Assembly: GCF_003289645.1 (NCBI RefSeq)
Contig: NZ_QLYX01000008.1
Location: 208,147-272,146, forward strand
DNA: 64,000 bases
Source: Actinomadura craniellae
GTDB lineage: Bacteria; Actinomycetota; Actinomycetes; Streptosporangiales; Streptosporangiaceae
Direction of reading: 5' to 3'
The notes beneath the pieces are model-generated. The model was not told the DNA's origin. It saw only the letters and a list, made by a program, of their open reading frames with translations, and ran no database searches. The position numbers were made by a program, and so were the translations under genes. How positions within the stretch are numbered: the stretch's first letter is position 1; each line of letters starts with the position of its first letter. Shown here one piece after another: positions 124-57,901 of the stretch.

Positions 124-141
124 AAGCATTGAGCTGCTTGG

Positions 142-5796: not shown

Positions 5797-5810
5797 ACCC
5801 GGACGGGGTA

Positions 5811-6010: not shown

Positions 6011-6583
6011 ATGGCAGGGGCGTCGCGGGAACGGATCGAAGTCGTGGCGGCCGAGCTGCTGGCCCGGCACGGGTACCACGGGCTGGGGCTGAAGGCGCTC
6101 AGCCAGGCGGCGGGGCTGCCGTACGGGTCGATCTACCACCACTTCCCCGGCGGCAAGGAGGAGATCGCCGTCGCGGCGATCACCGGCTGCGGGGAACGCC
6201 TCGGCGGAATGATCCGTGGCCTGCCCGACCAGGCGGTGGTGGCCACGGGGACCATGTTCGAGGCCATGGTCTGGCAACTGTCGGATTCCGACTGGGGCAG
6301 GGGCTGTCCGATCGGCACCCCCGCCCTGGACGGCGCCACCGAGTCAGCGGCGGTGCGGGAGGCCGTCGCCGGCGCCTTCGCCGCCATGACCTCCGCCCTG
6401 GCCGAGCGCCTGGCCGCGCTGGGCGTGCCGGGAGACCGGGCGGACCACCTGGCCACCACGATCATCGCCGCCTACGAGGGCGCGACCATGCTCGCCCGCG
6501 CCCAGCGCTCACCCGCCCCGCTGCAGGCTGCCGGCGAGGCCATGACCGCCTTGGTCCGTGCCGCCCTCCCGGAAACTCCCTGA
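6011..6583 (+). CDS. TetR/AcrR family transcriptional regulator
   Basis: N-terminal HTH (LGLKALSQAAGLPYGSIYHHFPGGKEEI) with an all-alpha C-terminal domain. Confidence 0.85.
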   Translation: MAGASRERIEVVAAELLARHGYHGLGLKALSQAAGLPYGSIYHHFPGGKEEIAVAAITGCGERLGGMIRGLPDQAVVATGTMFEAMVWQLSDSDWGRGCPIGTPALDGATESAAVREAVAGAFAAMTSALAERLAALGVPGDRADHLATTIIAAYEGATMLARAQRSPAPLQAAGEAMTALVRAALPETP

Positions 6584-6617
6584 CCTGCGCCCCGACGCCA
6601 CGGGCGGCATCGAAGCC

Positions 6618-6790
6618 GTGATCCTCCAGCATCCGAGGCGCCCCAGCGCACCGAAAACCGAAGGATCAGCCGGGCCAGGGCCTTGGCTTGCTGATCCTTC
6701 AGCATCCGAGGTGCTGTGACGCCCTGAAAGCTGAAGGATCAGCGGGCGAAGGCCCTGGCCGGTGATCCTTCGGGTTTCGGGTCGCCTGAT
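6618..6790. repeat. Cluster of three REP/MITE-like inverted-repeat units (CTGATCCTTCAGC...GCTGAAGGATCAG)
   Basis: The central unit has perfect 13-bp arms; the same element family recurs at 35001..35128 and, degenerate, at about 52990..53045. Confidence 0.7.
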
Positions 6791-6892
6791 GTCCCTGCTC
6801 TGAAGGGGCTTCATGGCGGGCTCGACTGTTGACTAGAAAGAACGTTCTAGCGATACTCCGGTCAGGAGTTCGTCTGACGGTGGGAGCAGGGC

Positions 6893-7924: not shown

Positions 7925-8342
7925 GCGGCCGGGACGCCACCACCGCCGGATCAGCGTAGATGAAGCAGCCCTGGTTCAACGTTTACCCAGGGTCGGCAAC
8001 TGAACATCGCTGCAGATACACGGTTTCCTCCCCGCCAGGGCCTGCCAGCAGGCGAAACCGTGCATATCCGCAATCTTTACGAGCAGAACGTTCCCAGGGG
8101 CAGGTCTTCCCACGCGAACAGCCTTGCTGGAGCGGGAGACCCGAGTTCTTCCGGACGAGAAGAACCACTCATCAAGAAGAACGTCGACAAACGTCAAGGG
8201 GCTGGTTCACTGGGCCCTGGCTGGGCCCTTTGGTGGGCCTCGAATGGTTCCAAATTGGGTCTCCAGGCCCTGTTCGGGAACTTCGATTAACATCATATTC
8301 ATCTTTGTCAAAGGAATTATGATGAACTGTGGCAGGTGATAG

Positions 8343-35003: not shown

Positions 35004-35128
35004 TCCTTCAGCTTTCGGTGCGTCATAACGCCTCGGATGCTGAAGGATCACCAGGTCAGGGCGATTCTCCGGTGATCCTTCGGCTTTCGAGGCGCCCTCG
35101 CGCCTCGAAAGCTGAAGGATCAGCCGGG
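35001..35128. repeat. Two REP/MITE-like inverted-repeat units of the GATCCTTCAGC family
   Basis: CTGATCCTTCAGC...GCTGAAGGATCAC and GGTGATCCTTCGGC...GCTGAAGGATCAGCC with a nested palindrome CTTTCGAGGCGC/GCGCCTCGAAAG. Confidence 0.75.
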
Positions 35129-36583
35129 GTAGGTCCACGGGCGGCCGGTGCCCTGATACTCCGCCACGGCGATGGGGTGGACGCCGGGGCGCATCCGGTC
35201 GGTGTAGAGGCGGCCGTGCAGGTGGTCGACCTCGTGCGCGACCAGGCGGGCGAGGGCGTCGGTGAAGACGGTGATGACCTGCCGTCCGTCCGGGGTGGTG
35301 TGCTCGACCTCCAGCCGCAGCGGCCGGGGGACGAGCCCGCGCACGTCGAAGAACGACAGGCAGCCCTCGTACCGCTCGTCCTCCTCGTCGGACTGCTCGA
35401 TGATCCGGGGGTTGAGCAGCACCAGCGGCTCGGCGTCGTCGCCGGGGGGCAGGACGACGGCGACCGCCCGGTCCACCCCGATCTGCGGGGCGGCGAGCCC
35501 CATTCCCTTGCCGAAGACGTGGTGCTCGCGCACGCGCTGCACCGCGGCCAGTAGTTCGTCGACCAGTTCGCGCACCTCGCCGGGCCGGGCGGGCAGGTCG
35601 ATCCGGCGGGCCGCCCGGCCGAGCCGGGGGTCGTCGCGCTGCACGATCCCGGCCGCCCGCATCCGGTCGCCGGCCGTCCTGAGCTCCGGTGGCGCGGTGT
35701 TCCCCGGCCCGGCGTGCTCGCGCAGCCGCCATTCCAGCCGGTACCGGCTGTTGAGCGGCGGGTCCTCGGTGGACCAGTCGAACACGTCGGTGTCGCCGTC
35801 CCGGCGCCGGGTGACGGGGGTGGGCAGTGGGGCGGCCTCGGCGGTGGCCGAGGTGTGCGTGCCCCACACCGCCGGCACCATGTCCGCGGGGAACACCAGG
35901 CGCACCGACAGCCGCAGGGTGTGCAGCCGGACGGCCCGCTGGAACCAGGGCCCCCACTTGTCCTCGCCCACCGTGTAGGCGTACTCCAGGGTGGCGCGCT
36001 CGCCGGGGTAGAGGGGGAACCGGCCGCGGTCGTTCTCGAAGCGCAGCCACACCTCCTTGAACGAGTCGCGGTCGAGCTTGACCTGCCAGTCCATCTCCTC
36101 GCCGTCGCAGCGGGCGGACAGCGCGAGCTCGTCGAAGGTCAGCGGGTGCCGCCGGTAGAGCCGGTTGGCGGCCTGCGGGTCGCCGGGGTGCCGGTCCACC
36201 GAGATGCGCATCAGGTACCGGGTGACCGGGTCGGGCCCGGTGTTGCGGATGGCGCGCCGCATGACGGCGGTGAAGGCGCCGGCCCGGTAGCGCAGCTCGG
36301 CGTGGTCGTGCTCCACCACCAGCCCGCCCGAGCCGCGCGGGGCGGGCGGCGCCGGCTGCTCGGTGCCCCCGGCGGACTGCCAGGCCCGCCAGATCTCGCC
36401 GCCCGCGCTCAGCGCGGCCTCGGCCCGCCGGGCGAAGTCGGCCGAGGCGGGGTGCCGGCCGTGCTCGACGTGCGAGATGTAGGACCGGTCGAATCCCATG
36501 GCGTCGGCCAGCGCCCGCCCGGTCATCCGCCGGCGCTTGCGCCACCGGGTGAGCACGCCCCCGAACGTCTCGACGTCGTCCAT
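35120..36583 (-). CDS. Fusion protein: Scr1-like XRE-HTH + DUF5753-like domain + complete peptide deformylase domain
   Basis: N-terminal Cro/C1 HTH (LTRWRKRRRMTGRALADAMGFDRSYISHVEHGR). C-terminal PDF motifs GMGLAAPQIG, EGCLS, HEVDHLHG. An internal Met at 35662 looks like a stand-alone PDF N-terminus, but no stop separates the parts. Confidence 0.7.
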   Translation of the reverse strand: MDDVETFGGVLTRWRKRRRMTGRALADAMGFDRSYISHVEHGRHPASADFARRAEAALSAGGEIWRAWQSAGGTEQPAPPAPRGSGGLVVEHDHAELRYRAGAFTAVMRRAIRNTGPDPVTRYLMRISVDRHPGDPQAANRLYRRHPLTFDELALSARCDGEEMDWQVKLDRDSFKEVWLRFENDRGRFPLYPGERATLEYAYTVGEDKWGPWFQRAVRLHTLRLSVRLVFPADMVPAVWGTHTSATAEAAPLPTPVTRRRDGDTDVFDWSTEDPPLNSRYRLEWRLREHAGPGNTAPPELRTAGDRMRAAGIVQRDDPRLGRAARRIDLPARPGEVRELVDELLAAVQRVREHHVFGKGMGLAAPQIGVDRAVAVVLPPGDDAEPLVLLNPRIIEQSDEEDERYEGCLSFFDVRGLVPRPLRLEVEHTTPDGRQVITVFTDALARLVAHEVDHLHGRLYTDRMRPGVHPIAVAEYQGTGRPWTYPG

Positions 36584-38146: not shown

Positions 38147-38500
38147 ATGGAGTTCGTCCGGCAGCTGCTGCTCTTCCTGCACTTCATCGGGCTGGCGGTG
38201 CTCATCGGCGCCTTCGTCGCCCAGGTCGCCACCCGGCCGGAGAACGGCCGGTACCTCCCGGGCACGGGGATGCTCCACGGCGCGCTCACCCAGCTCGTCA
38301 CCGGCCTCGCCCTGGTCGGGGTGCTGGAGAGCGGGGACGACCCGGTCAACCACCCCAAGGTCGGGGTGAAGCTGCTCGTCGTGCTGGCCGTCCTGGTGCT
38401 GCTGGTCATGGGCCGCAGGAAGCCGCTGGCCAAGGGCGCCTTCATGGCGATCGGCCTGCTCGCCCTGGTCAACGTGGGCGTCGCCGTCTTCTGGACCTAA
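38147..38500 (+). CDS. Small integral membrane protein (4 TM), unknown function
   Basis: ATG 38147 with GAAGGG RBS; four hydrophobic helices. Confidence 0.6.
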   Translation: MEFVRQLLLFLHFIGLAVLIGAFVAQVATRPENGRYLPGTGMLHGALTQLVTGLALVGVLESGDDPVNHPKVGVKLLVVLAVLVLLVMGRRKPLAKGAFMAIGLLALVNVGVAVFWT

Positions 38501-39885
38501 GGGCGCTCCTCGGCGACGATCGTCAGCCCCGCCCCGGCGGCGGCCTTCGGGTAGTCGTCGTCGATGTGCACCACCCGCCGGCCGGCCCGCAGCAGCAGCG
38601 CCGCGGCCGCGGCGGCGCGGTAGCCGGACCCGCAGTGCACCCACACCGTCCCCGCCGGGACCTCGTCGATCCGGGCGGGCAGGTCGGGCAGCGGGATGTG
38701 GACGGCGCCGTCGAGGTGCCCCTCGCGCCACTCGCGGGGCATCCGCACGTCCAGGACGACGTCGGGGGCGAGTGCCCCGTGCGGGGACCGGCCCGCCCGC
38801 GCGGCGGCCAGGTCCTCGAACGCGGCCACCGGCAGCGCGCCCAGCCGCTCTCCCCACCGCTCGGGCGTCCCGACAGCGCTCGCCGCCGGACGGTCCACGC
38901 CGATCCGGGCCAGCTCCCGCTGGGCGGCGGCGACCTGCTCGGCCGACTCGCCGAGCAGGGTGATCGGCGCCTCCGTCGGGGCCAGCCAGCCCAGCCAGGT
39001 GGCCATCGGCCCGTCCAGCCCGAAGCTCAGGGTGCCGGCCAGGTGCCGCCGCGCGAACGCCCGCCGGCTGCGCAGGTCCACCACCCACTCGCCGGCCGCG
39101 ATCCGGCCCGCCAGCTCGCCGGGGTCGGCGCGGCGCACCGGGCTGAGGTCGATCGGGCCCGGCCCCGCCGCGTTGATCGCCCCCATGTGCGCGTAGTAGG
39201 CGGGGTAGGCGTCCAGCCCGGCCAGGGTCTCGGTGACGAACTCGTCGGCGGCCAGCAGCAGCACCGGGTTGACGGCCCGCTCCCGGCCGATCGTGGACTC
39301 GTCGGCGTCCGACTGGGTGGCCGAGCAGAAGCTGCCGAAGCCGTGCGTCGGCCAGACCCGGACGCCGTCGGGCAGCAGGTCGGCCAGCCGCCGGGCCGAG
39401 GCGTGCTGGGCGTGCGCCAGCTCACCGGAGTGCTCCGGGCCGGACAGGTCGGGCCGGCCGGTGGTGCCGAACAGCAGCGAGCCGCCGGTGAAGACCCCGA
39501 CCGGCCCGTCCGGCCCGGACAGCACGTACGAGAGGTGGTGGAAGGTGTGCCCCGGGGTGGCCACCGCCCGCAGCCGCATCCGGTCGGAGATCTCGACCTC
39601 CTCGCCCTCGGCGACGGGGACGCGGTCGAAGTCCACCTGCTCGGCCGCCCCCACCAGGTACGCGGCCCCGGTCAGCCGGGACAGCGCCAGCCCGCCGGAG
39701 ACGTAGTCGTTGTGCAGGTGCGTCTCCACCACATGGGTGATCCGGACGTCCAGCCGCCCGGCCAGCCGGAGCATCCGGTCGATGTCGCGCTGCGGATCGA
39801 CCGCCACCGCGACCTGGCCGTCAGTGGCCAGGTGGCTGCGGTCACCCAGCGAGGAGGTCTCCACGACCCGAACGTCGATCGTCAT
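38497..39885 (-). CDS. MBL-fold metallo-hydrolase fused to a rhodanese domain (persulfide dioxygenase-like)
   Basis: HxHxDH motif (ETHLHNDYVSG); C-terminal rhodanese active-site Cys (HCGSGYRAAAAA). Confidence 0.8.
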   Translation of the reverse strand: MTIDVRVVETSSLGDRSHLATDGQVAVAVDPQRDIDRMLRLAGRLDVRITHVVETHLHNDYVSGGLALSRLTGAAYLVGAAEQVDFDRVPVAEGEEVEISDRMRLRAVATPGHTFHHLSYVLSGPDGPVGVFTGGSLLFGTTGRPDLSGPEHSGELAHAQHASARRLADLLPDGVRVWPTHGFGSFCSATQSDADESTIGRERAVNPVLLLAADEFVTETLAGLDAYPAYYAHMGAINAAGPGPIDLSPVRRADPGELAGRIAAGEWVVDLRSRRAFARRHLAGTLSFGLDGPMATWLGWLAPTEAPITLLGESAEQVAAAQRELARIGVDRPAASAVGTPERWGERLGALPVAAFEDLAAARAGRSPHGALAPDVVLDVRMPREWREGHLDGAVHIPLPDLPARIDEVPAGTVWVHCGSGYRAAAAAALLLRAGRRVVHIDDDYPKAAAGAGLTIVAEERP

Positions 39886-39997
39886 CTTCTCCGCCTACCC
39901 GGCATATACCCCATAGGGGTTTGATCTCCGGGGGTTTTTGCGGCCTTGTTCGGTGAGGGGCTTGGAAGAGTCGGGTCGTGGTGATGGGGTGTGTGCC

Positions 39998-40906
39998 ATG
40001 ACGGCGGCGATCTCCGTGACGAAACTGGTCAAGACGTTCGGTCCCACACGCGCCCTCGACGAGCTCGACCTGTCCGTCCGGACGGGCGAAGTGCACGGTT
40101 TCCTGGGCCCCAACGGTGCCGGGAAGTCCACCACCATCCGGGTGCTGCTGGGGTTGCTGCGGCGCGACTCCGGCGAGGTGAGCGTGCTCGGGGCCGACCC
40201 CTGGCGGGACGCGGTCTCCCTGCACCGCAGGCTGGCGTACGTCCCGGGGGACGTGAACCTGTGGCCCAACCTGTCCGGTGGCGAGGCCATCGACCTGTTC
40301 GGGGCGTTGCGCGGCGGGCTCGACCCGGGCCGCCGGGCCGAGCTGGTGGAGCGGTTCGAGCTCGACCCCACCAAGAAGTGCCGGGCCTACTCCAAGGGCA
40401 ACCGGCAGAAGGTGGCCCTCGTCGCCGCCTTCGCCTCCGACGTCGAGCTGTACGTCCTGGACGAGCCGACCGCGGGGCTGGACCCGCTGATGGACTCGGT
40501 CTTCCGGAGCTACGTCCAGGAGGCCCGGGAGGCCGGCCGGACGGTGCTGCTGTCGAGCCACATCCTCGGCGAGGTCGAGGCGCTGTGCGACCGGATCAGC
40601 ATCATCCGGGAGGGCCGCATCGTCGAGTCGGGGACGCTGGGCGAGCTGCGGCACCTGACCCGGACCACCGTGTCGGTGCGCACCGAACGCCCGGTCACCG
40701 GGCTGGACGGACTGCCGGGCGTGCACGACGTCCGCAACGGTGACGACACCACCCGGTTCGAGATCGAGCCGGGCCGGTTCGACGCGGTCCTGCGGCACCT
40801 GGCCGGGTTCGGCGTGCTGGACCTGACCAGCACGCCGCCCAGCCTGGAGGAACTGTTCCTGCGCTTCTACGGCGGCGACGCACCCGCGGAGGCCGAGGCG
40901 AAATGA
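39998..40906 (+). CDS. ABC transporter ATP-binding protein
   Basis: Walker A GPNGAGKST, signature LSGGE, Walker B LYVLDEPTAGLD. Confidence 0.9.
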   Translation: MTAAISVTKLVKTFGPTRALDELDLSVRTGEVHGFLGPNGAGKSTTIRVLLGLLRRDSGEVSVLGADPWRDAVSLHRRLAYVPGDVNLWPNLSGGEAIDLFGALRGGLDPGRRAELVERFELDPTKKCRAYSKGNRQKVALVAAFASDVELYVLDEPTAGLDPLMDSVFRSYVQEAREAGRTVLLSSHILGEVEALCDRISIIREGRIVESGTLGELRHLTRTTVSVRTERPVTGLDGLPGVHDVRNGDDTTRFEIEPGRFDAVLRHLAGFGVLDLTSTPPSLEELFLRFYGGDAPAEAEAK

Positions 40907-42525
40907 GCTCCTTCACCGGCACCGCGCGGCTGGCCCGGCTGGCGCTGCGCCGCGACCGCGTCCAGCTCCCGGTCTGGGTCTTCGGCCTGGGCGGCGTGCT
41001 CGCCGCGACCGCGGCGAGCGTGAGCGGCGCCTACACCACCGACGCCGAGCGCGCGGCGTACGCGGTCACCGCGGCCAACCCGGCCGCCATGGCGTTCAAC
41101 GGCCCGGTGCTCGGCACCGACCTCGGCTCGATCACCATGACCGAGACGTTCACCGTGCTGGCCGTGTTCGTCGCCCTGATGAGCACGATGGCGGTGGTCC
41201 GGCACACCCGGCAGAACGAGGAGACGGGCCGGGCCGAGCTGGTCGGCTCCGCGATCGTCGGGCGGCACGCGCCGCTGACCGCCGCGCTGATCACGGTGGC
41301 CGGCGCCAACGCGGCGCTGGCGGTGCTCGTCGGGCTGCTGCTGAACGCGAACGGCCTGTCCCCGGCGGGTTCCTGGGGGATCGGCCTGGCCCTGGGCCTG
41401 GTCGGCGTCGTCTTCGCGGGCGTGGCCGCCGTCGCCGCCCAGCTCTCCGGGACCTCCCGCGGGGCCAACGGGCTCGCCGCCGCCGGGCTCGGGCTGGCGT
41501 TCCTGCTGCGCGCGGTGGGCGACTCGCTGGGCGAGCAGGCGCCAGGCGGGGTGACCACCGACAGCGCGTTCTTCTCCTGGCTGTCCCCGATCGGCTGGGG
41601 GCACCAGCTGAAACCCTTCACCGAGACCAACTGGTGGGTGCTGGGGCTGCTCGCCGTCCTGGCCGGGCTGCTGGTCGCGCTGGCGTACGCGCTCACCGCC
41701 CACCGCGACCTCGGCGCGGGGATGCTGCCCGACCGGGCGGGGCCCGCGACGGCCCCCCGCGGCCTGCTCCGCCCGCTCGGGCTGGCCTGGCGGCTGCAGC
41801 GCGGGGCCGTGCTCGGCTGGTCCGTGGCGATGGTGGTGCTGGGCGTCACCTTCGGCGCGCTCGGCGAGGAGATCGACGAGATGCTGGAGAACAACCCCCA
41901 GCTCGCCGAGGTCTTCCGGCAGTTCGGCACCGACGGCACACCCGCCGACATGTACTTCGGCATGGTGCTGGGGTTGATGGCGATCGCGGCCGCCGGCTAC
42001 ACCGTCCAGGCGCTGCTGCGGATGCGGGCCGAGGAGTCCTCCGGGGTGCTGGAACCGCTGCTGGCCACGGCGGTGAGCCGGCCCCGGTGGATGCTGGGCC
42101 ACATCCTCATCGCGACGGCCGGCACCGTCCTCCTGCTCGTGCTGCTGGGGTCGGGCGCCGGGCTCTCCTACGGCCTGATCGTCGGGGACGTGCCGGGCCA
42201 GGTGGTCTCGCTGGCCGGGGCGGCGCTGGCCCAGGCGCCGGGGCCGCTGGCGCTCGCCGGGGCCGTGGTCGCCGTGATCGGCCTGCTGCCGGGCCGGGCC
42301 GTCGCCCTGGCGTGGGGGGCGCTGGTGGTCTGCGTGCTGCTGGGGCAGGTCGGCCTGCTGCTCGAACTGCCGCAGCCGGTCCTCGACATCTCGCCGTTCA
42401 CGCACCTGCCGCCGGTGCCGGCCGCCGAGGTCGCGGTGACGCCGATCCTCAGCCTGCTCGCCGCCGGGCTGCTGCTCACCGCGGCGGGCGTCGCGGCGTT
42501 CCGGCGGCGCGACCTCACGATGTGA
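40903..42525 (+). CDS. ABC-2 type transporter permease (12 TM)
   Basis: ATGA overlap with the ATPase gene; polytopic hydrophobic protein. Confidence 0.8.
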   Translation: MSSFTGTARLARLALRRDRVQLPVWVFGLGGVLAATAASVSGAYTTDAERAAYAVTAANPAAMAFNGPVLGTDLGSITMTETFTVLAVFVALMSTMAVVRHTRQNEETGRAELVGSAIVGRHAPLTAALITVAGANAALAVLVGLLLNANGLSPAGSWGIGLALGLVGVVFAGVAAVAAQLSGTSRGANGLAAAGLGLAFLLRAVGDSLGEQAPGGVTTDSAFFSWLSPIGWGHQLKPFTETNWWVLGLLAVLAGLLVALAYALTAHRDLGAGMLPDRAGPATAPRGLLRPLGLAWRLQRGAVLGWSVAMVVLGVTFGALGEEIDEMLENNPQLAEVFRQFGTDGTPADMYFGMVLGLMAIAAAGYTVQALLRMRAEESSGVLEPLLATAVSRPRWMLGHILIATAGTVLLLVLLGSGAGLSYGLIVGDVPGQVVSLAGAALAQAPGPLALAGAVVAVIGLLPGRAVALAWGALVVCVLLGQVGLLLELPQPVLDISPFTHLPPVPAAEVAVTPILSLLAAGLLLTAAGVAAFRRRDLTM

Positions 42526-43099
42526 GCTCCGGGCGCCGCTCGGCGCGCTCCTTGACGTCCAGCAGCATCCGGCGCTCCAGGACCAGGTCGCCCGGCTCCC
42601 GCAGCACGGAGTCGAGCAGCCGCCGAGCGGCCGAGCCGGTGCCGGCGCCGGCGACCCGGTTACGGCTGATCAGCCGGGTCGCCGTCCCCTCCGGCCGCAG
42701 GACGAACGCCTGCACCCGGTCGCCGGCGGGGGAGCGGAACACCAGCGTGCGCTCCGGCTCCAGGACCGCCACCTGCATGCGTGACCGCACCGTCCGGGGG
42801 TCCCAGGCGGGCCCGCCCGCGCCGCGCCCGAGCAGGTTCTCCAGCCGGTCGTGGGTGCGCCCGCCGCCCAGCCGTACCAGCCAGGGCCAGATCGCGGCGG
42901 GCGCCGCCTGGATCGTGACCGCCCGGGTGGAGAGGACGCCGGGATGCGGCATTAACTCGTCGCCGGGCAGCGCCCGTTCGGCCTCCTCGGCGGTCGCCCC
43001 CCAGGTCAGGCACCAGCGGCGCCACATCCGGGGGTACGCGGCGGCCAGCCCCGCCACCACCAGGCCGAGGCGCACCGCGAGCCGCAGCCTGCTGTTCAT
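42515..43099 (-). CDS. SRPBCC (polyketide cyclase/START-like) family protein
   Basis: About 190-aa helix-grip-like pattern. ATGA-coupled to the upstream USP gene. Confidence 0.55.
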   Translation of the reverse strand: MNSRLRLAVRLGLVVAGLAAAYPRMWRRWCLTWGATAEEAERALPGDELMPHPGVLSTRAVTIQAAPAAIWPWLVRLGGGRTHDRLENLLGRGAGGPAWDPRTVRSRMQVAVLEPERTLVFRSPAGDRVQAFVLRPEGTATRLISRNRVAGAGTGSAARRLLDSVLREPGDLVLERRMLLDVKERAERRPELTS

Positions 43100-43935
43100 G
43101 ATCGCTCCGGTTCGGGGACGACCACGATGGGGCACCGGCTGTGGTGCAGCACGGTGTGGTTGGTGCGGCCCAGCCCCAGGCCCAGGATGCCGCGCTGCCG
43201 GTGCGCGCCGACGACGACCAGCGCGGCGCGCTCGGAGGCCGTCACGAGGGAGGACCCCGGCCGCTCGTCGACCACGGTGCGCGAGACCTGGACACCCGGG
43301 TACCGCGACCCGTGTTCCGCCAGCACCGGCGACGGCCCCAGGCCCTCGCCGACCTGCTGCTCGGGGGCGCCGAACACCCCGCCGACGGCGTACAGGGAGG
43401 TCAGCCGGGCCTTGCGCAGGTCGGCCTCGCGGTACGCCCAGTCGAGGGCGGACCCGGCGGGGGAGTCCTCGTCGACACCGACCACGATCTCGGCGGGGGC
43501 GTCCGCCGGGTCGGGTGCGGTGAGCGGGACCACCACCACCGGACGGGTGGCCCGGGCCGCCACGTGCAGTGAGACCGAGCCGAGCAGCAGCCCCTCGAAG
43601 CCGCCGACCCCGCGGGATCCGAGGACCAGCATCGAGGCGTTCTCGCTCTCGTCGAGCAGGGCCCGGCCGGGCTCGCCCGCCAGCAGGTCCGTCGTCACCT
43701 CCAGGCCGGGGGCGCGGCGCAGCACCCGGTCCCGGGCCTCCTCCAGCAGTTCGGTGCGGGTGGCGTCCTGCCGCGCGTAGCCCTCCTCGGTCAGCGACCC
43801 GTCGCGGACCAGCAGCATGGACGCGTTCACCAGCCGGACGGGCAGGTCGTGCAACTCGGCTTCGGCGGCGGCCCAGTCGATCGCCCGCCGGGCCCGCTCC
43901 GAGCCGTCGACTCCCACGATGATCGGGTCCCGCAT
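43096..43935 (-). CDS. Universal stress protein, tandem UspA domains
   Basis: Two USP repeats each with GSRG...G ATP-binding motif (VLGSRGVGG; VVGAHRQRG). Confidence 0.85.
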   Translation of the reverse strand: MRDPIIVGVDGSERARRAIDWAAAEAELHDLPVRLVNASMLLVRDGSLTEEGYARQDATRTELLEEARDRVLRRAPGLEVTTDLLAGEPGRALLDESENASMLVLGSRGVGGFEGLLLGSVSLHVAARATRPVVVVPLTAPDPADAPAEIVVGVDEDSPAGSALDWAYREADLRKARLTSLYAVGGVFGAPEQQVGEGLGPSPVLAEHGSRYPGVQVSRTVVDERPGSSLVTASERAALVVVGAHRQRGILGLGLGRTNHTVLHHSRCPIVVVPEPERS

Positions 43936-44159
43936 GGTGGTTCTCCTGTCTTATCGGATCTTCTCGACGTTAGGCGTCCTCTTCCCTAGACGGGCAAAGC
44001 CAAAGGTCCTGAATACGGGGAGTTCAGCGGATCTATACGACTCGCCCGGCAGCCCGATGGGTTTGAATGGCCGTATCTTTACTGCGTGTAGCGGTCCCGC
44101 TCCGGTGAGTGTGGATAGTCCTCTGTGCGGGTCACAAAGCCCGTACGAAGGGGGATCGA

Positions 44160-45350
44160 ATGAATTCGCGAGCGAGAAGGCGCATGTTCCTGGCCGCGGC
44201 AGCGGCCGGGGCCGCGCTTTCCACCGCAGGACCGGCCTCGGCGTCGACGCTGGTGCCCGAACCCGAGCCCGGGCACCAGCAGGGGCCGTACTACCAGTTC
44301 CAGCCCTACCAGGGCCACCACCAGCCGATGCAGCCCTTCCAGGGGCCGTTCACGCACCAGGCGCCCGAGCAGTACCAGTTCCAGCCGTACCAGTTCCAGC
44401 AGGAGCAGCGCCCGCGGCACGGCCACCAGCCAGGGCACTCCCCGCAGCCCTACGGGCCGACGGCGCACCACCAGCCGGCGAACCAGCACCGGCCGGGGGA
44501 GTACCCGGAGCCCTCGATCTACCTCATCTCGCAGCCGGACCTGATGGACCTGCTGGGCTTCCAGCAGCCGTCACACGCACAGCGCCCGGAGGAGCGGCCG
44601 CGGCACGAGGCCGGACCGCACGGCCCGCAGCACGGCCACGGCCCGCGAGGCGAGCACGGCCCGCGGGGCGAGCACGGTGAGCATGGCCCGAAGGATGGCC
44701 ACGGCGAGCACGGCGAGCAGGGTGGCCACGGTCCGCACGGCGAGCACGGCCCGAGGGACGAGCATGGCCCGAACGATGGCCACGATGGTCGCGATGGGCA
44801 TGGTCCGCAGGGCGGTCACGGCCCGCGGGATGGCCACGGTGAGCATGGGCCGCACGATGGCCGTGATGGGCATGGTCCGCAGGGCGGCCACGGCCCGCGG
44901 GACGGCCACGGTGAGCACGGTCCGCAGGGCGAGCACGGTCCGCGAGGTGAGCACGGCCCGCACGATGGGCGCGGTGAGCATGGTCCGCGGGGCGGCCACG
45001 GCCCGCGGGACGGCCACGGTGAGCACGGCCCGCAGGGTGGCCACGGTGAGCACGGCCCGCAGGGTGGCCACGGTGAGCACGGCCCGCAGGGTGGCCACGG
45101 TGAGCACGGCCCGCAGGGTGGCCACGGTGAGCACGGCCCGCAGGGTGGCCACGGTGAGCACGGCCCGCAGGGTGGCCACGGTGAGCACGGCCCGCAGGGT
45201 GGCCACGGTGAGCACGGCCCGCAGGGTGGCCACGGTGAGCACGGCCCGCAGGGCGGCCACGGTGAGCACGGCCCGCAGGGCGGCCACGATGGGCATGGTG
45301 AGCACGGCCCGCAGGGGCCCGGGGAGCAGCAGGGCCCCGAGCAGGATTGA
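44160..45350 (+). CDS. Secreted His/Gly-rich repetitive protein (probable metal-binding)
   Basis: Signal peptide [28 protein letters not shown]. Gln/Pro/His-rich N-terminal part, then about 30 GHG/EHG units including 9 perfect GGHGEHGPQ repeats. Confidence 0.75.
45010..45295 (+). repeat. Perfect 27-bp tandem repeat (GGTGGCCACGGTGAGCACGGCCCGCAG), about 10 copies, inside the HG-rich CDS
   Basis: Direct inspection; in-frame coding repeats. Confidence 0.9.
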
Positions 45351-45631
45351 CGTCCAGGGGCGGCAGGCTCGTTGAGCCCGGCCTTCCGCGCCGGCACCGG
45401 TGACGGCGAAGTCCACCGGTGGACCGGCTGCACGGGCCGGCTTCGAGTAAGCCGACCCCTGGGAGCGCCGCTTCGGCGGCGCGTGCGGGACCGGCCGGCG
45501 GATGCGGCCGGTTCCGGGGGAACTCCGCGGTGCCGGTTCGGAAGACTCGGCGTTCCGGTGACAACCGGCCACTGCGGCGGTGCCCGTGCGGACCGTCACG
45601 TGCCCTGCGGTCCGCACGGGCGCCTCCCCGC

Positions 45632-46843
45632 CTACTTCGGTGGGCGGGGGTGCGCCAGGACGGCCGGCCAGACCGTGAACAGGGCGGCGAGCATCGCGAA
45701 ACCACCCGTTACGACCGCGGCGTCCGCGGTGGCGGGGAACGGCGACAGCGCCACTCCGACCGCGATCGGCACGGCGAGCAGCGCCGTCCAGCCCCACAGG
45801 ATCGCCCGCCCGCGCGGGCGGGGGTAGAACAGGGACTCCTGGACCGGGACGGGGAGCGCCAGCAGGGCCGCCCCCGCGTACCCCACCCCGGGCAGGGACA
45901 GGGCGGCACCCGCGCCCAGCAGCACCGCACCCGACCCCAGGGCGGTGACGGAGATGCCGGCGGCCCGCCGTTCCGCACGTCCGATCAGGTCCCGGTGCCG
46001 CGGGTCGGCCCGCAGCCGCAGCGCCAGGTAGGTCTCGGTCACCGCCAACGCCCAGAACCCGAGGGTGAGCAGCAGGACGAGCAGGGTGACGAGCGGGATC
46101 ACCGCGCCGAGCGCCAGCGTCAGCAGGACCCGTCCGCGCGACGCCTCCCGCAGCCCGGCGAGCCGGTACAGGATCCGGTGGCAGGGGTTGCGCAGTTTCA
46201 GCGAGAGCAGCAGCAGCCACCGGCCGGGGGTCCAGCCGGGGTCGAGCCGCAGCGCCTCCCGGAACGCCTCCGCCGCCGTCCGGGGGTCGCCGCCGGCCAG
46301 GGCGGCCCGCCCGTACGCGATGTGCGGCAGCGGCGTCTCGGGGTCGAGCCGGACCGCCTCGGCCGCGGCGGCCAGCGCCCCCGGCGCCCCGGAGACCTCG
46401 GCGAGCGAGACGCTGAGCAGGCTGGTCAGCGCGCTGTCCTGCGGGTCGTGGCGCAGCCCCTCCTGGGCGGCCTGGGCGGCGGGCCACCACTCGTGCAGGC
46501 TCATGTGGATCCGGGAGACCAGCTCCCAGGCCGACGGCCGGGTCGGGTCGATCGCCAGCGCGGTGCGGGCGGCGTGCAGGGCGTCGTGCGGGCGGTCCCG
46601 GCGCCGCAGCACCAGGGCCGCCACGTAGTGCGGGTACCAGTGGTCGGGGGAGAGCCGGACCGCCTCGTTCGCCGCGGCCAGCGCGGCGTCGAGGGAGCCG
46701 ACCTCCGTCAGCGCGTACGCGAGCAGCGCGTGCGCCATCGGCTGCTGCGGGTCGCGCGCCAGGATCTCGCGCAGTTCCCGTTCGGCGGCTTCGGGGCGGC
46801 GCAGCCGCAGCAGCGTCCGGGCCCGTTCGAGGGTGTCGCTCAC
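45632..46843 (-). CDS. TPR-repeat protein with C-terminal multi-TM domain
   Basis: GTG start overlapping (GTGA) the stop of the AAA gene. TPR-like repeats, then 5-6 TM helices. Upstream part of the 588-aa ORF rejected. Confidence 0.6.
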   Translation of the reverse strand: MSDTLERARTLLRLRRPEAAERELREILARDPQQPMAHALLAYALTEVGSLDAALAAANEAVRLSPDHWYPHYVAALVLRRRDRPHDALHAARTALAIDPTRPSAWELVSRIHMSLHEWWPAAQAAQEGLRHDPQDSALTSLLSVSLAEVSGAPGALAAAAEAVRLDPETPLPHIAYGRAALAGGDPRTAAEAFREALRLDPGWTPGRWLLLLSLKLRNPCHRILYRLAGLREASRGRVLLTLALGAVIPLVTLLVLLLTLGFWALAVTETYLALRLRADPRHRDLIGRAERRAAGISVTALGSGAVLLGAGAALSLPGVGYAGAALLALPVPVQESLFYPRPRGRAILWGWTALLAVPIAVGVALSPFPATADAAVVTGGFAMLAALFTVWPAVLAHPRPPK

Positions 46844-48150
46844 CGCCGGTCCAGCCAGGGGCGCAGCTCGTCCCAGACCCCGCTCTCGTTGGAGTGCATC
46901 ACGTAGTTGCGGGCGGTGGCCAGCCATTCGCGCACCACGCTGGGCCGGACGGCCTTCGCCGCGGCCAGCAGGTCGGCGGTGTGCAGTGGCAGCGGGTGCC
47001 CGGCCCGCAGCGACTCGTGCAGCTTGGCTTCGACCGCGCGGTCCACGATGCCGGCCAGGTCGGCGCCGACGAACCAGTCGGTGGCCTTGGCGACCTGGAG
47101 GAAGTCGAGTTCGCCCAGCGGTTTGTCCCGTAGCTGGAGGGCGAGGATCGCGGCCCGGGCGTGCAGGTCGGGCGGCGGCACGAACACCATCTGGTCGAAC
47201 CGGCCGGGCCGCCGGAACGCCACGTCGATGTACCAGGGGGCGTTGGTGGCGGCCAGCACCAGCACCCCCTCGTTGGCCTCGTCGTCCACCCCGTCCAGCT
47301 CGGCCAGGAACTGGTTGACGATCTGCCGGTTGTGCGCCGCCCGCATGTCGGCGCGGCGGGCGGCCAGCGCGTCCACCTCGTCGAAGAACAGGACGCACGG
47401 CCGGCGGGCGCGGGCCTGCTCGAATATCGCCTTCAGGTTGCGCTCGCTGGACCCGACGTACATGTCGAGGATGTCGGCGAGCCCGACGTCGATGAACGCG
47501 GCGCCCAGTTCGCCGGCCGCGGCCCGGGCCAGGTGCGTCTTGCCGCAGCCCGGCGGGCCGTACAGCAGGACTCCGCCGCCGGCCCGCTTGCCGTAGGCGG
47601 CGAACAGTTCGGGCCGCTGCACGGGTAGCAGCAGCTTCATCCGCAGAGTCTCCTTGACCGCCTCCATTCCCGCCACGTCGGCGAAGGTGGTGCGTGGCCG
47701 CTCGGTCTCCGCGGCGATCTCGACGGGCGGGGCCTGCACCGGTAGCGGTTCGGCGACCCCCGGGACGAGCCGGGCGGCCAGTTCGGGGTCGGCCAGGGAC
47801 GGGTCCGCCGCGAGGGCCGTCCAGTACCGCTGGTTGGCGGCGCCCAGGTCGCCCTCGGCGACCAGTGCCCGGGCCGCGACCACCCCGGCGCGGGGCGGCA
47901 GGTCGGGCAGCGACTCCAGCGCGGCCAGCGCCGCGCCGTGCTTGCCCTGCCGGACGAACGCCTCGGCCAGGCCCGTGACGATGCCGGCGTCTCCGGGGGC
48001 GAGGAGCAGGGCCGCCTGGAACTCGGTCTCGGCCTCGGCGAGGAGGCCGGCCGTCAGCAGCCGTTCCGCCAGCAGCCGCCGCAACGGGGGGTTGTCGGGC
48101 GACAGGCGGGCCGCCTCGCGCAGCGCGTCCAGCGCGGCAGCGTCGGTCAC
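46840..48150 (-). CDS. TPR + classic AAA (CDC48/FtsH-type) ATPase
   Basis: GTG 48150 with AAGGAG RBS; Walker A GPPGCGKT, Walker B FFDEVD, second region of homology. The N-terminal 470 aa of the 906-aa ORF are a shadow of capA. Confidence 0.8.
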   Translation of the reverse strand: MTDAAALDALREAARLSPDNPPLRRLLAERLLTAGLLAEAETEFQAALLLAPGDAGIVTGLAEAFVRQGKHGAALAALESLPDLPPRAGVVAARALVAEGDLGAANQRYWTALAADPSLADPELAARLVPGVAEPLPVQAPPVEIAAETERPRTTFADVAGMEAVKETLRMKLLLPVQRPELFAAYGKRAGGGVLLYGPPGCGKTHLARAAAGELGAAFIDVGLADILDMYVGSSERNLKAIFEQARARRPCVLFFDEVDALAARRADMRAAHNRQIVNQFLAELDGVDDEANEGVLVLAATNAPWYIDVAFRRPGRFDQMVFVPPPDLHARAAILALQLRDKPLGELDFLQVAKATDWFVGADLAGIVDRAVEAKLHESLRAGHPLPLHTADLLAAAKAVRPSVVREWLATARNYVMHSNESGVWDELRPWLDRR

Positions 48151-48261
48151 GGGTTCCGGCTCCTTCGGCTCGGGGGGTGAGGCGTCCAGTCTCCGGGATG
48201 ACGGGCCCGGCCCGGAACCGGGTGCGCCCGCCGGTATGGCGGGCAGGGCCGTGACGAGGGG

Positions 48262-49239
48262 GTGATTTCGATGGCGACGATCGCGCTGGCGGGCGACACG
48301 ATGCTGGGACGTGGGGTGGCGGCCCGGCTGGTCGCGGATCCCGCGGCCGAACTGTTCTCCGCCGGGGTCCGCGACCTCCTGGCGGCGGCCGACCTGACGG
48401 TGCTCAACCTCGAATGCTGCATTTCGGGCCGGGGCGAGCCGTGGCCGGAGCGGCGGTTCCACTTCCGGGCGCCGCCGCGGGCGGCGGAGGCGCTGGCCGC
48501 GCTGGGGGTCGGCTGCGTCACGCTGGCCAACAACCATGCCCTGGACTTCGGCTTCGACGCGCTCGCCGACACCCTCGACGGGTTGCGGCGGGCGGGGGTC
48601 CGCACGGTCGGCGCCGGCCCCGATCTGGCCGCGGCCCGCGCCCCCGCGATCCTGGCGGCCGGGGGGACCCGGGTGGCGGTGCTGGGGCTGACCGACCACC
48701 CTGCGGACTACGCCGCCGCGCCGGACCGGCCGGGGGTCGCCCACGCGGACCTGTTCTCCGGTGTCCCGGGCTGGGCGGCCGAGGAGATCCGGCGGCTGCG
48801 CGGCGACGCCGAGGTCGTGCTCGTCACCCCGCACTGGGGGCCGAACATGACCGCCGACCCGCTGCCGTACGTGCGCGCCGCCGCGGCGGACCTGGTCGGC
48901 GCGGGGGCGACGCTGGTCGCGGGTCACTCCGCGCACGTATTCCACGGTGTGACCGGCCGGGTCCTCTACGACCTGGGCGACTTCATCGACGACTACGCGG
49001 TGGACCCGCGGCTGCGCAACGATCTCGGCCTGCTGTTCCTGGTCACGCTGGACGGGGCCGGCCCGCCCGAGGTGCGGGCGGCGCCGCTGGCCCTGGACTA
49101 CGGCCGGACGCGGCTGGCGGAGGGGGCCGAGCGGGAGTGGGTCCGGACCCGGTTCGCCACGGCGTGCGCGGCGCTGGGGGCGGCGCGGGTGGTGGAGGAG
49201 GACGGCCTGCTGGCGGTCCGACCCACCGAGCAGACATAA
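48262..49239 (+). CDS. CapA/PGA_cap family metallophosphatase-like protein
   Basis: LAGDTMLGRG, NLECC, LANNHALDFG, TPHWGPN motifs. Confidence 0.8.
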   Translation: MISMATIALAGDTMLGRGVAARLVADPAAELFSAGVRDLLAAADLTVLNLECCISGRGEPWPERRFHFRAPPRAAEALAALGVGCVTLANNHALDFGFDALADTLDGLRRAGVRTVGAGPDLAAARAPAILAAGGTRVAVLGLTDHPADYAAAPDRPGVAHADLFSGVPGWAAEEIRRLRGDAEVVLVTPHWGPNMTADPLPYVRAAAADLVGAGATLVAGHSAHVFHGVTGRVLYDLGDFIDDYAVDPRLRNDLGLLFLVTLDGAGPPEVRAAPLALDYGRTRLAEGAEREWVRTRFATACAALGAARVVEEDGLLAVRPTEQT

Positions 49240-49306
49240 AGGACATTTCCCTGCATTAGTCCCCGACCAGCGGGGACGTTCTGGAAAGAGCATCAAGGGG
49301 GCTGTC

Positions 49307-49564
49307 ATGAAGGCCAAAGACTGGACCATCCAGATCCACATCAGCGAAGAGGACCCGACCACCGTGGCCCGGGCCGTGCTGTCCACCGACGGGACGATGC
49401 GGGCCACCGGCGTCGGCCGGGCCCGCCGCAACCCGGCCGACCGCGAGGTCCCGGAGATCGGCGACGAACTCGCGGTCGCCCGCGCGCTGGCCGACCTGGC
49501 CGGCCGCCTGCAGAGCGTCGCGGGGCAGGACATCGCCCAGTTCACCGGTTCCGCCAGCACCTGA
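49307..49564 (+). CDS. DUF1876 domain protein
   Basis: About 85 aa with conserved ARRNPAD...IGDELAVARAL pattern; AAGGGGG RBS. Confidence 0.6.
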   Translation: MKAKDWTIQIHISEEDPTTVARAVLSTDGTMRATGVGRARRNPADREVPEIGDELAVARALADLAGRLQSVAGQDIAQFTGSAST

Positions 49565-55912: not shown

Positions 55913-56178
55913 TCACACCGACGAAGGGAATTACTCCGGATCGTGCGCTTCTAGCCGTTGGCGCCCAGATCATCCTTCAGCTCGATCGGCCGCTGACAGT
56001 CAGCCAAACTTGGGCTCGTCTGCGCACCTGGCGGCAGGTGAACGGGCACCCGGCACCGTTATCCTTTGGCTGGTTCGTGCTCGCGCTCGATGTGCTCTAC
56101 GCACTCGGGGCCCTGGAGTTGAACGACGATCTGCTGACGGTGGTGAGGACGGGCCATGCTGCGTCGGCTCTCGGCTGA
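55909..56178 (+). CDS. Small (89 aa) alpha-helical middle component (MC-like) of the ABC-3C-like system
   Basis: Translationally coupled on both sides: ATGA with the effector, and a 23-nt overlap with the ATPase. Confidence 0.55.
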   Translation: MITPTKGITPDRALLAVGAQIILQLDRPLTVSQTWARLRTWRQVNGHPAPLSFGWFVLALDVLYALGALELNDDLLTVVRTGHAASALG

Positions 56179-57901
56179 CGACCAACGCTTCAAAACGGTC
56201 GAATTCCGCGAGGGGCTCAACCTTCTGGTTGCGCGAAGTACCGCAGAGTCATCCTCGACCGACAGTCGTAATGGTTCCGGCAAATCGAGTCTTGTTGAGC
56301 TCCTGCACTTCTTGCTCGGGGCGCGAGGCAGCCGCAATCACCTCGCCAGCCGGCCGAGCCTTCGGGACATCACGTTCACGCTGCGCCTCGATTGGCCGGG
56401 ACAGGCGAGAGCCATGGAAGTGAGCCGGAGCGGGAAAACAGCCGCGAACGTCCTGTTAGATCCCTGTCCCACATCCCTTGCAGGGCTTCTCCCGGAAGGC
56501 CGGTGCGCGGTCCCGGTCGGGGATTGGCAGGCGCTTACCGAGTCTGCGCTGTTCGGCCTGTCCGGTGAGCATCCGGGAGTCAGCGGGCGGGCGCTGCTGT
56601 CCTTCCTGATGCGCAAGGTCGGAGACCATGGATTCAACGAGGCCATCCGGAGTTTCGCGCGGCAGCCGGAGGCGCAGGCCACTCCGAACCTTGCTTACCT
56701 GCTGGGATTGGACTCCGATCTGGCGGCGCGATACCAGGATCTCGCGGCGCGCAAGGCCACCCGCGACCAGCTGAAGAAGGCGATCGACGATCCGGTATGG
56801 GGTCAGGTCGTCGGTAAGAGCGCGGACCTCCGCGGCCAGATAGCGATTGTCGAATCGAGAATCACCGCGTTGAACCGGCAGATCGCCGAGTTCCGGGTGG
56901 TGCCCCAGTACGAGGAGCTCAAATCTCGGGCCGATGAGCTGACGCGGCGGATCCAGGAGCTCAGCGCCGAGGACATCATCGATCGGCGGAACCTCGATCA
57001 CCTGGAGAAGGCGGTGGCCGAAGCCATCGACCCGGAAGTCCACTACCTCCAAGACGTCTACGAAGGACTCGGCATTTCGATCCCCGATCGAACGCTCCGC
57101 AGGTTCGAGGATGTACGCGAATTCCATGCCGCCGTGGTCGCCAACCGCCGTACTTACCTTGAGCAAGAGATCCGAGATACCCGAACGCGGCTGGAGAACC
57201 GTAAGGCCGAGCGGGCTCTCCTCGGGGAGGAGCAGAGCCGCATCCTCAAGCAACTTGGTGCAGGTGGTGCGCTCGCCGCTCTGACGACTCTGCAGAAGGC
57301 GCTGGGCCAGGAGGAGGCCGCGCGGGGCGCGTTGCAACACCGCTTGGAGGCGGCTCAGGCTGTTGAGGCGGGCAAGCGGGAGATCGCGAGCGAGCGTCTC
57401 AGATTGAACCAGGCCATCGAGACCGATCTGCAGGAGCGTCGCCTCCAGACCGACGAGGCCCAGGTTCTGTTCAATGACTTCGCTCAGCGTCTCTACGGTA
57501 CGACCAGGCCGTCCTATCTCAAGATCGAGCCAGGACCGAGCAGCCTGAGGATCACCCCGAAGATCGATAGTGATGTCAGCCAGGGCATCAACCGAATGGC
57601 GATCTTCTGCTTCGACCTGACCATCGCCGTCATAGCCCGCCGCGCGAACCGGGGTCCGGACTTCCTGGTCCATGACAGCCATCTCTTCGACGGTGTCGAT
57701 GATCGTCAGTTGACCCGGGCTCTGGAGATCGCTGTTGAGACCATGGCAGCCGAGAACATGCAGTACATCGTCACGATCAACGAGGATGATCTCGCCAAGG
57801 CCCGGGCCCTGGGCTTTGGCGCCGACCCCTACATCATCGAGCCTCGACTGACAGATGCCTACGCTGAAGGAGGCCTCTTCGGTTTCCGCTTCGACAGGTA
57901 A
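56156..57901 (+). CDS. ABC/SMC-like ATPase with coiled-coil insert (DUF2326/ABC-3C-type)
   Basis: N-terminal FKTVEFREGLNLLV...NGSGKSSLVEL (Walker A), about 230-aa coiled coil, C-terminal SQGINRMAIFCF (signature-like) and FLVHDSHLFDGVDD (Walker B/D-loop). Confidence 0.75.
   Translation: MLRRLSADDQRFKTVEFREGLNLLVARSTAESSSTDSRNGSGKSSLVELLHFLLGARGSRNHLASRPSLRDITFTLRLDWPGQARAMEVSRSGKTAANVLLDPCPTSLAGLLPEGRCAVPVGDWQALTESALFGLSGEHPGVSGRALLSFLMRKVGDHGFNEAIRSFARQPEAQATPNLAYLLGLDSDLAARYQDLAARKATRDQLKKAIDDPVWGQVVGKSADLRGQIAIVESRITALNRQIAEFRVVPQYEELKSRADELTRRIQELSAEDIIDRRNLDHLEKAVAEAIDPEVHYLQDVYEGLGISIPDRTLRRFEDVREFHAAVVANRRTYLEQEIRDTRTRLENRKAERALLGEEQSRILKQLGAGGALAALTTLQKALGQEEAARGALQHRLEAAQAVEAGKREIASERLRLNQAIETDLQERRLQTDEAQVLFNDFAQRLYGTTRPSYLKIEPGPSSLRITPKIDSDVSQGINRMAIFCFDLTIAVIARRANRGPDFLVHDSHLFDGVDDRQLTRALEIAVETMAAENMQYIVTINEDDLAKARALGFGADPYIIEPRLTDAYAEGGLFGFRFDR

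Follow-up and report, generated by a model that had tools for sequence, protein, structure and literature searches.

In a 64,000-nt stretch of the draft genome of Actinomadura craniellae (family Thermomonosporaceae; contig NZ_QLYX01000008.1; hereafter, the window), we found that the strongest tandem repeat is the array carried by a single open reading frame (ORF), which runs on the plus strand from an ATG at 44160 to a TGA at 45348-45350 and specifies a product of 396 amino acids (aa). We are largely confident that ORF 44160-45350 is a real gene. Our best explanation, which we hold tentatively, is that it encodes a lineage-specific, secreted low-complexity polymer that would act as a multivalent metal- and pH-responsive binder, with the route of its export, its disorder, its binding of metals and its role in the cell's physiology all being predictions. 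An earlier note on this DNA, made from the letters alone, had described a signal-peptide-bearing, His/Gly-rich tandem-repeat protein with a Gln/Pro/His-rich segment, and all of these elements are indeed present in the ORF sequence. That note missed both the Gly-X-Y (collagen-like) register of the product and its orphan status, including its apparent absence from public protein sets.

The ORF and the DNA on either side of it are made up of the following parts (window coordinates throughout):

43936-44159 (+): intergenic region between the divergent Usp gene and the ORF, upstream of both, holding AAGGGGGA at 44148-44155
44160-44243 (+): signal peptide, aa 1-28, with an RRMFL core, an Ala/Gly-rich hydrophobic (h-) region and an A-S-A cleavage motif followed by S
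44244-44612 (+): N-terminal low-complexity head, aa 29-151, with Q 24, P 23, H 12, Y 8 and F 6 among its 123 residues
44613-45017 (+): older diverged triplets, aa 152-286, i.e., 45 triplets of the form [G/D]-[P/E/G]-[H/Q/R] that show 54- and 72-nt periods of higher order
45012-45253 (+): perfectly periodic 27-bp array, 8.96 units by self-match, including 8 exact copies of GGTGGCCACGGTGAGCACGGCCCGCAG at 45036-45251
45018-45287 (+): uninterrupted Gly-X-Y block, aa 287-376, 30 triplets that are essentially (GGH-GEH-GPQ)n and coincide with the perfect array
45288-45350 (+): C-terminal tail of 20 residues without an anchor motif, plus the TGA
45431-45516 (no strand assigned): GC-rich hairpins at 45431-45461 and 45486-45516, in the 281-bp gap to the convergent TPR gene

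The tandem array is far beyond what chance would produce. Taking the repeat copy number as assembled in the draft public contig, we found that self-identity at a lag of 27 is perfect over 242 bp, within which the 8 exact copies of GGTGGCCACGGTGAGCACGGCCCGCAG stand back to back; a ninth unit of the same type differs by a single synonymous change (GGT to GGC). At the protein level, this corresponds to nine successive GGHGEHGPQ units with DGHGEHGPQ directly before them. The "9-10 perfect copies" of the earlier note are therefore right as to a perfect 27-bp array and slightly too high as a count of exact DNA copies. Tandem Repeats Finder (TRF) reported a 27-bp array of 18 copies (81% matches) at 44823-45298 and an 81-bp period (96% matches) at 44997-45295, together with other periods of 9, 18, 36, 54, 63, 72 and 81 nt that extend back to ~44600, as well as distinct 15- and 30-nt repeats in the N-terminal part of the ORF. 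Because the 242 bp of perfect periodicity are flanked by increasingly diverged copies, a recent in-frame expansion of 27-bp units, as had been proposed in the earlier note, is supported. The sole other sizeable tandem repeat in the window, at 6615-6771, has a 73-bp period, 2.2 copies and 76% matches.

We chose the plus-strand frame because its N-terminal part has a gene-like GC pattern, because a ribosome-binding site lies in front of it and its first codons specify a well-formed signal peptide, and because its Gly and His codons vary synonymously. The G+C content of the window is 72.5%, and the values for the three codon positions (GC1/2/3) of the nonrepeat part, 44160-44600, are 0.75/0.48/0.93, resembling those of the window's confident genes (GC3 of 0.88-0.98); within the same interval, the antisense codon register is interrupted by a stop at 44571. 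In the repeat region, 94 Gly residues are retained by means of GGC (53), GGT (33), GGG (7) and GGA (1), and His by means of CAC (44) and CAT (7), whereas an antisense reading would turn this third-position variation into A/T/P/S and V/M, respectively. The start at 44160 is favored over the alternative in-frame start upstream (GTG at 44109), since the Shine-Dalgarno-like AAGGGGGA is spaced 4 nt from the ATG at 44160. A consensus scan of the upstream region found no sigma-70 consensus promoter, and no inverted repeat was found in that region. Downstream, the two hairpins are candidate bidirectional terminators, and a consensus scan of the gap between the ORF and the TPR gene found no T-tract terminator.

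The sequence RRxFL is the center of the twin-arginine (Tat) consensus (S/T-R-R-x-F-L-K type), and the RRMFL core of the leader fits it; after this core come an h-region of weak hydrophobicity (Kyte-Doolittle mean of 1.52) and an AxA site. Searches with hidden Markov models (HMMs) gave two matches to the leader, both weak and both to Tat leaders, namely MelC1 of Streptomyces (E 0.048) and formate_TAT, the formate-dehydrogenase TAT target (E 0.069); no dedicated Tat-signal HMM gave a match. Kinship with MelC1 itself was rejected, since the alignment is confined to the 31-residue leader. The leader, which had been called a Sec signal peptide, thus looks more like a Tat signal: export through Tat is likely, with Sec also possible. 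By either route, we consider export of the product probable. The mature protein has no LPXTG/LAXTG motif, lipobox, Cys or transmembrane/hydrophobic segment, so the cell-surface location given in the earlier note is not borne out; we would expect the protein to be released without a covalent or membrane anchor.

The mature protein has a mass of 38.7 kDa and a grand average of hydropathy of -1.88, and it lacks Trp as well as Cys. Its head is composed in part of the 15- and 30-nt repeats reported by TRF. From aa 152 onward, it is built of 81 triplets in one register with zero indels. Position 1 of the triplets is held by Gly 67 times, Asp 12 times and His twice (83 in-register residues over aa 149-396), position 2 by Pro (31), Gly (26) or Glu (24), and position 3 mainly by His (49), Gln (17) or Arg (11). 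Among the older 45 triplets, Gly is replaced by Asp 11 times and by His once; overall, Gly-X-Y is interrupted 14 times in the 51 triplets outside the 30-triplet block (12 times by Asp), and no run there exceeds 6 triplets. As a result of this architecture, the composition is extreme: G 26.5%, H 15.7%, P 13.9%, Q 10.9% and E 8.6% in the whole protein, and G 37.9%, H 20.6%, P 12.5%, E 10.5% and D 5.2% in the repeat part (aa 149-396). AlphaFold 2 (AF2), run with no alignment, returned a mean predicted local distance difference test (pLDDT) score of 46 and a single helix in the whole protein, 7 residues long (aa 125-131, in the head), with no fold beyond it. The model is consistent with a mature chain that is extended or disordered.

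Given this composition, metal binding is plausible. The protein contains 62 His residues, and the mature chain contains 49 Asp plus Glu. Of the 61 intervals between neighboring His residues, 48 measure either 3 residues (20 times) or 6 residues (28 times), and there are 20 HxxH motifs. The mature protein has a pI of 6.0, and its calculated net charge goes from +34 at pH 5 to -26 at pH 7. The nature of the interruptions offers a hint as well: of the 14 replacements of Gly at position 1, 12 are by Asp, and none is by Ser, Ala, Val or Arg. Acidic ligands therefore appear to have been kept or added, as if ligand chemistry rather than the geometry of a helix had been conserved; these Asp-for-Gly replacements were partly copied by unit duplication and hence are not independent events.

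We postulate the following mechanism. The 396-aa precursor would be exported by means of its twin-arginine-type (possibly Sec) leader and released unanchored. The mature chain would present a Gln/Pro/aromatic-rich head followed by the 81 [Gly/Asp]-[Pro/Glu/Gly]-[His/Gln/Arg] triplets, which would place an imidazole every 3 or 6 residues beside carboxylates, and it may thereby act as a multivalent, high-capacity and modest-affinity binder of Ni, Zn, Cu and Co. With its charge flipping near pH 6, such a chain could soak up or buffer metals outside the cell, or it could be a matrix polymer that responds to metals and pH. The array would lengthen and shorten in frame as 27-bp (9-codon) units slip or recombine unequally, with the latest expansion being very recent. 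That metal- or pH-responsive binding is the physiological role is a part of this proposal that we put forward with particular reserve, judging from residue content and spacing.

Known systems offer partial parallels to such a polymer. The SilE and PcoE sponges and the Hpn-type Ni storage proteins are likewise hydrophilic, are of small to medium size, lack a stable fold, carry many His (plus Met/Glu/Asp) ligands and have been proposed to buffer metal ions either within or outside the cell (PMC5008109; PMC3856676); SilE in particular is a disordered periplasmic "molecular sponge" for metal (PMC5008109). However, SilE and PcoE belong to metal-resistance operons and use His/Met motifs, whereas our ORF has no homology to them and neither a metal-related neighbor nor a regulator site, and Hpn is cytoplasmic; the ORF product, moreover, has a rigid 3-residue periodicity. 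In composition, close counterparts come from marine invertebrates, i.e., Nereis NVJP-1, Glycera MTP and the squid His-rich beak proteins. NVJP-1 contains Gly 36, His 27, Asp 9 and Glu 6 mol %, has a mass of 32-40 kDa and [GGH] repeats, and assembles in response to Zn and pH, and Glycera MTP has GGH/GHG repeats and binds many Cu2+ ions (PMC9999432). The repeat domain of the ORF product is close to these (Gly 38, His 21, Glu 10.5 and Asp 5%; 38.7 kDa for the mature protein), and a two-part layout with a Tyr-containing N-terminal part is found on both sides. In contrast, the invertebrate proteins are eukaryotic and unrelated by descent and have no Gly-X-Y register or Pro triplets, such that the likeness is one of convergent composition only.

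Several observations weigh against a metal- and pH-responsive polymer encoded by an expressed gene. To begin with, the repeat units of the ORF are multiples of 3, so its frames stay open whether translated or not; across the perfect array, 5 of 6 frames are open. In the repeat region (44601-45254), it is the antisense register that has a GC3 of 0.98-1.0 and a codon score of 0.66-0.89, versus ~0 for the sense register. The ORF appears to be absent from public protein sets, and our searches found no ortholog that would attest to purifying selection between species. As for metals, scoring of the 224 bp upstream against consensus sequences gave no box of the Zur, Nur, IdeR or CsoR type that exceeds the background of the window, that region has no Rfam match or riboswitch, no metal-binding family in Pfam or NCBIfam matches the product at E <=0.1, and no metal-related gene lies among the neighbors. 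The Ni/Zn/Cu binding suggested in the earlier note is thus plausible from composition and gains no backing from neighbors, operators or riboswitches. Finally, all sequence matches are collagen-like, so a structural instead of a chemical role is possible.

The orphan status of the ORF emerged from searches at several depths. A full-length search of 5.8 billion clusters returned no self-match, an exhaustive phmmer search of 1.84 billion representatives with the mature N-terminal segment returned 0 matches at E <=1e-3, and a word-indexed search with the N-terminal segment also returned 0 matches. No ortholog was found by a peptide-pattern scan of 185,579 species-representative genomes, by tblastn against plasmids, or by a metagenome DNA scan for a 15-residue peptide of the ORF product. 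A looser His-in-Y pattern recovered from metagenomes mostly (SHG)n peptides of the HxsA type plus junk frames, with no comparable architecture. Among 73 actinomycete loci and the window, no His/Gly-rich ORF was found other than ORF 44160-45350, and a literature search on bacterial His-rich collagen-like proteins and on A. craniellae found nothing on the ORF product. Exact look-ups in a collection of 15 billion sequences were negative for 3 sense and 9 antisense products, with antisense 44527-45705 (GTG start) tried only as a DNA reference. Both neighbors, in contrast, are in public sets: the divergent Usp gene (43096-43935, minus strand) corresponds to RAY13775.1/WP_111869313.1 of A. craniellae, on a contig of 310,454 bp, and the TPR gene convergent to the ORF (45632-46843, minus strand) has a product with 100% identity to a public A. 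craniellae protein. The better antisense score of the repeat region could mislead gene finders and might account for the ORF being missing from public protein sets that do contain both of its neighbors.

The gene is also missing at the syntenic site beside the AAA+/TPR pair in Streptosporangium and Nonomuraea, where the gene beyond the pair differs. In Streptosporangium (locus L197), the equivalent position has an unrelated 66-aa ORF (7357-7557, minus strand) whose N terminus is hydrophobic and whose tail is rich in Arg and Pro; a TerC gene comes next. A genome scan for synteny based on Usp was set aside, as it recovered only paralogs of ~40% identity.

The Gly-X-Y periodicity is the sole feature of the ORF product that sequence databases recognize, and this raises the question of whether the protein is a genuine bacterial collagen, in which the Gly-X-Y region, or at least aa 287-376, would form a homotrimeric triple helix and serve as a structural fibre or adhesin, with His as a secondary surface decoration. 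The strict, indel-free register of 81 triplets, with Gly at position 1 in 67 of them and Pro at X in 31 of the 67 GXY triplets, speaks for this. So do the database results: the 90-aa block alone (aa 287-376) is long enough and scores 29.0 bits with the Pfam Collagen model (PF01391), above the gathering score of 27.2; of the 46 matches in the 5.8-billion-cluster search (top score, 71 bits), 45 are PF01391 proteins; and the PDB matches are solely animal collagen chains (best E 6e-14). Yet the same model gives 24.4 bits for the whole protein and 19.5 bits for the diverged half alone (aa 152-286), both under that score, and the NCBIfam models NF038329, NF038330 and NF046116 (Lcl/SclA/SclB collagen-like adhesins), which do match the repeat part, reach 62.6, 49.1 and 71.1 bits, far short of their respective cut-offs (325, 400 and 500). 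None of the collagen-like matches that we inspected is His-rich, and their likeness is limited to GPQGEXG-type words. The GGH and GEH triplets, with Gly at X and His at Y, have a low propensity for the triple helix on the Persikov host-guest scale. Hydroxyproline is not needed for stable helices in expressed bacterial collagens (PMC4066190), which would favor the collagen explanation; however, Scl2 requires an N-terminal globular trimerization (V) domain (PMC4066190), and we found no trimerization or nucleation domain outside the repeats, be it as a Pfam or NCBIfam domain, an AF2 fold or a homolog, nor any LPXTG wall anchor. A short nucleation element of a novel kind may nonetheless be present. 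Among Gly replacements, helix stability decreases in the order Ala ~ Ser > Arg > Asp, making Asp the most destabilizing residue tested (PMC10765305), and it is Asp that accounts for 12 of the 14 interruptions in the 81 triplets. On balance, we regard a genuine collagen as unlikely. The comparison with the known bacterial collagen-like proteins (PF01391; Scl1/Scl2 of Streptococcus pyogenes, Lcl of Legionella and BclA of Bacillus) runs along the same lines: these are also secreted, with long Gly-X-Y stretches, a Pro-rich X position, many charges and no hydroxyproline, and their repeat number evolves by in-frame slippage, whereas the ORF product has His at 39 of 67 Y positions, Asp at 12 Gly positions, and a Tat-like leader, and lacks a trimerization domain, an LPXTG anchor and any accompanying globular domain. 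Matches in PHROG were to the collagen-like stretches of phage tail fibres and covered only aa 260-394, the GXY part; a tail fibre was rejected because the flanking genes have no structural-phage matches and the product has a signal peptide.

A different explanation dispenses with function altogether: the ORF might be young, a product of nested minisatellite expansion in accessory DNA that possibly extended a short secreted-peptide gene, with the composition a mere by-product. The failure to find relatives in the cluster, representative, genome, plasmid and metagenome searches, the gap at the syntenic site in Streptosporangium and Nonomuraea, and the absence from public protein sets would all follow from such an origin, as would the fact that the whole ORF consists of nested repeats (periods of 15, 30 and 9/18/27/54/72/81 nt). 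The window looks like accessory, defence-type DNA, and with most frames open across the perfect array, openness in itself is uninformative. Nevertheless, the N-terminal 147 codons have a GC3 of 0.93 and follow a Shine-Dalgarno-like element, the leader and its cleavage site are well formed, and the older repeats have diverged through substitution only, never losing register, with Gly and His kept through synonymous codon changes and position-1 replacements being almost exclusively Asp. We therefore think it improbable that the ORF is functionless. Far less credible still is a gene on the opposite strand in the same codon register, with a start between 45296 and 45617, a stop at 44571 and a hydrophobic (LRAVLTVAT)n repeat product. 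The high antisense GC3 and codon score of the repeat region would favor it, and on two Pseudonocardia plasmids the NCBI Prokaryotic Genome Annotation Pipeline (PGAP) makes just such a call, placing an antisense (LAV)n ORF across an (HGE)n tract. However, that frame meets its stop at 44571, the N-terminal region has a nongenic composition when read this way (GC1 of 0.93), and the upstream part resembles a typical out-of-frame translation of high-GC DNA. Differences between repeats are nonsynonymous in 69 of 80 cases in the antisense register versus 56 of 80 in the sense register, with the Gly/His variation becoming A/T/P/S and V/M. Eight candidate antisense products (from 7 starts in the same register plus ORF 44819-45433) are missing from the collection, 44527-45705 having been tried only as a DNA reference, and the sense ORF is continuous with its leader and ribosome-binding site.

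There is also a way in which collagen geometry and metal chemistry might be combined. Here, the position-3 His residues would line one face of an extended collagen or polyproline-II helix with 3 residues per turn as a "histidine ladder," and metal, or a rise in pH above ~6, could zip the chains into extracellular triple helices or fibres of higher order; Tat export and a length tuned by 27-bp slippage belong to the same joint proposal. We consider it quite improbable as a whole. If true, it would amount to a metal- or pH-gated self-assembling bacterial collagen, which so far is known only as a designed peptide concept.

If ORF 44160-45350 is expressed as the secreted polymer that we favor, it would be a bacterial Gly-X-Y protein with His in most Y positions, a composition that was unseen in the 5.8 billion clusters and in the metagenome pattern scans. 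It would then join the bacterial collagens, valued as designable biomaterials, with the His/Gly-rich materials of marine animals that respond to metals and pH, and it could supply a natural template for collagen-like polymers switchable by metal, or else a tag that binds metal with high capacity. If, instead, it is a functionless young ORF, it would provide a clean example of a long open frame that arose from nested minisatellite expansion. There is a practical warning as well: the gene is missing from public sets probably since Gly-rich repeats in high-GC DNA score better in the antisense direction, and the same trap seems to be behind the antisense "(LAV)n" annotations in Pseudonocardia plasmids.

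Those plasmids, pPA12743CP and pPaSha1, have ~70% DNA similarity to the repeat region through a common CACGGCGAG unit. The ORFs concerned encode (HGE)n proteins (locus L001, 4082-6091, plus strand; locus L002, 4203-6017, plus strand). Like A. craniellae, their hosts are actinomycetes, and the ORFs adjoin genes for a P-type ATPase, an HMA-domain protein and a CsoR-like protein. They differ in being cytoplasmic or membrane-associated ORFs within a nuo/Mrp-like operon, with pure HGE repeats, globular flanks and no signal peptide or Pro triplets. The matches were accordingly rejected as orthologs, being a shared low-complexity HGE unit in a different protein. On the opposite strand of these ORFs, PGAP annotates (LAV)n "hypothetical proteins" (WP_232021795.1 and WP_281010827.1; L001, 4982-5410, minus strand; L002, 4980-5201, minus strand), which are probably strand misannotations caused by the GC3 artefact.

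A second group of look-alikes is formed by the HxsA His-Xaa-Ser repeat peptides, which also have period-3 repeats with His at every third residue. The HxsA4 model (NF038313 and relatives) matched the ORF product weakly, with 33.1 bits where the cut-off is 55. The HxsA peptides have a length of ~100 aa and carry (SHG)n tails, whereas the ORF product has Pro, Glu or Gly at X and a signal peptide. HxsA occurs together with the HxsB/HxsC radical-SAM genes, and no radical-SAM family match was found among the annotated neighbors of ORF 44160-45350. Many small ORFs ending in (SHG)n tails of the HxsA type were seen on metagenome contigs (L116, L180, L152, L142 and L081). Another contig, which is of high GC content (L123; 141-1418, minus strand) encodes a signal-peptide protein that by eye is beta-propeller-like and carries the His/Asp-rich insert GHHGHHGHHGDHGDH. 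Outside its repeats, the ORF product matched no Pfam or NCBIfam domain.

The neighborhood of the ORF comprises Usp, a DrrA-type ABC transporter, a metallo-beta-lactamase (MBL)-rhodanese fusion and the TPR/AAA+ pair. The last of these consists of a TPR protein with C-terminal membrane segments (45632-46843, minus strand) and a TPR protein with an AAA+ ATPase domain (46840-49560, minus strand), encoded by genes that abut or overlap. The pair is conserved across Streptosporangiales (Streptosporangium and Nonomuraea), with overlapping genes in L197 (4682-6007 and 6001-7206, together 4682-7206) and L199 (1-2186), and it also occurs in L076 (~8001-9348). The MBL-rhodanese fusion (38497-39885, minus strand), by appearance of the persulfide dioxygenase type, lies upstream of the DrrA-type ABC ATPase gene (39938-40906) and of a 540-aa ORF (40903-42525) that has no Pfam match and is a putative permease by position only.

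Farther away, the window encodes an unusual 487-aa fusion of an N-terminal HTH_31/XRE-type DNA-binding domain to a C-terminal peptide deformylase domain (35120-36583, minus strand) and has a content of accessory, defence-like type: a 1620-aa DUF3686 ATPase with DUF7902 along with an adjoining 669-aa ORF without a domain (26137-33005, minus strand), an ABC-3C component (CTD10 plus DUF2326; 56156-57901, plus strand), and a SARP-type BTAD/NB-ARC/TPR regulator (20847-23951, minus strand). Within the ORF of this regulator, ARAGORN predicts a 104-nt tRNA-Gly(acc) (23627-23730, minus strand), in all probability a false positive. The start of the window holds ordinary genes for tRNA-Phe and tRNA-Asp (49-216, minus strand).

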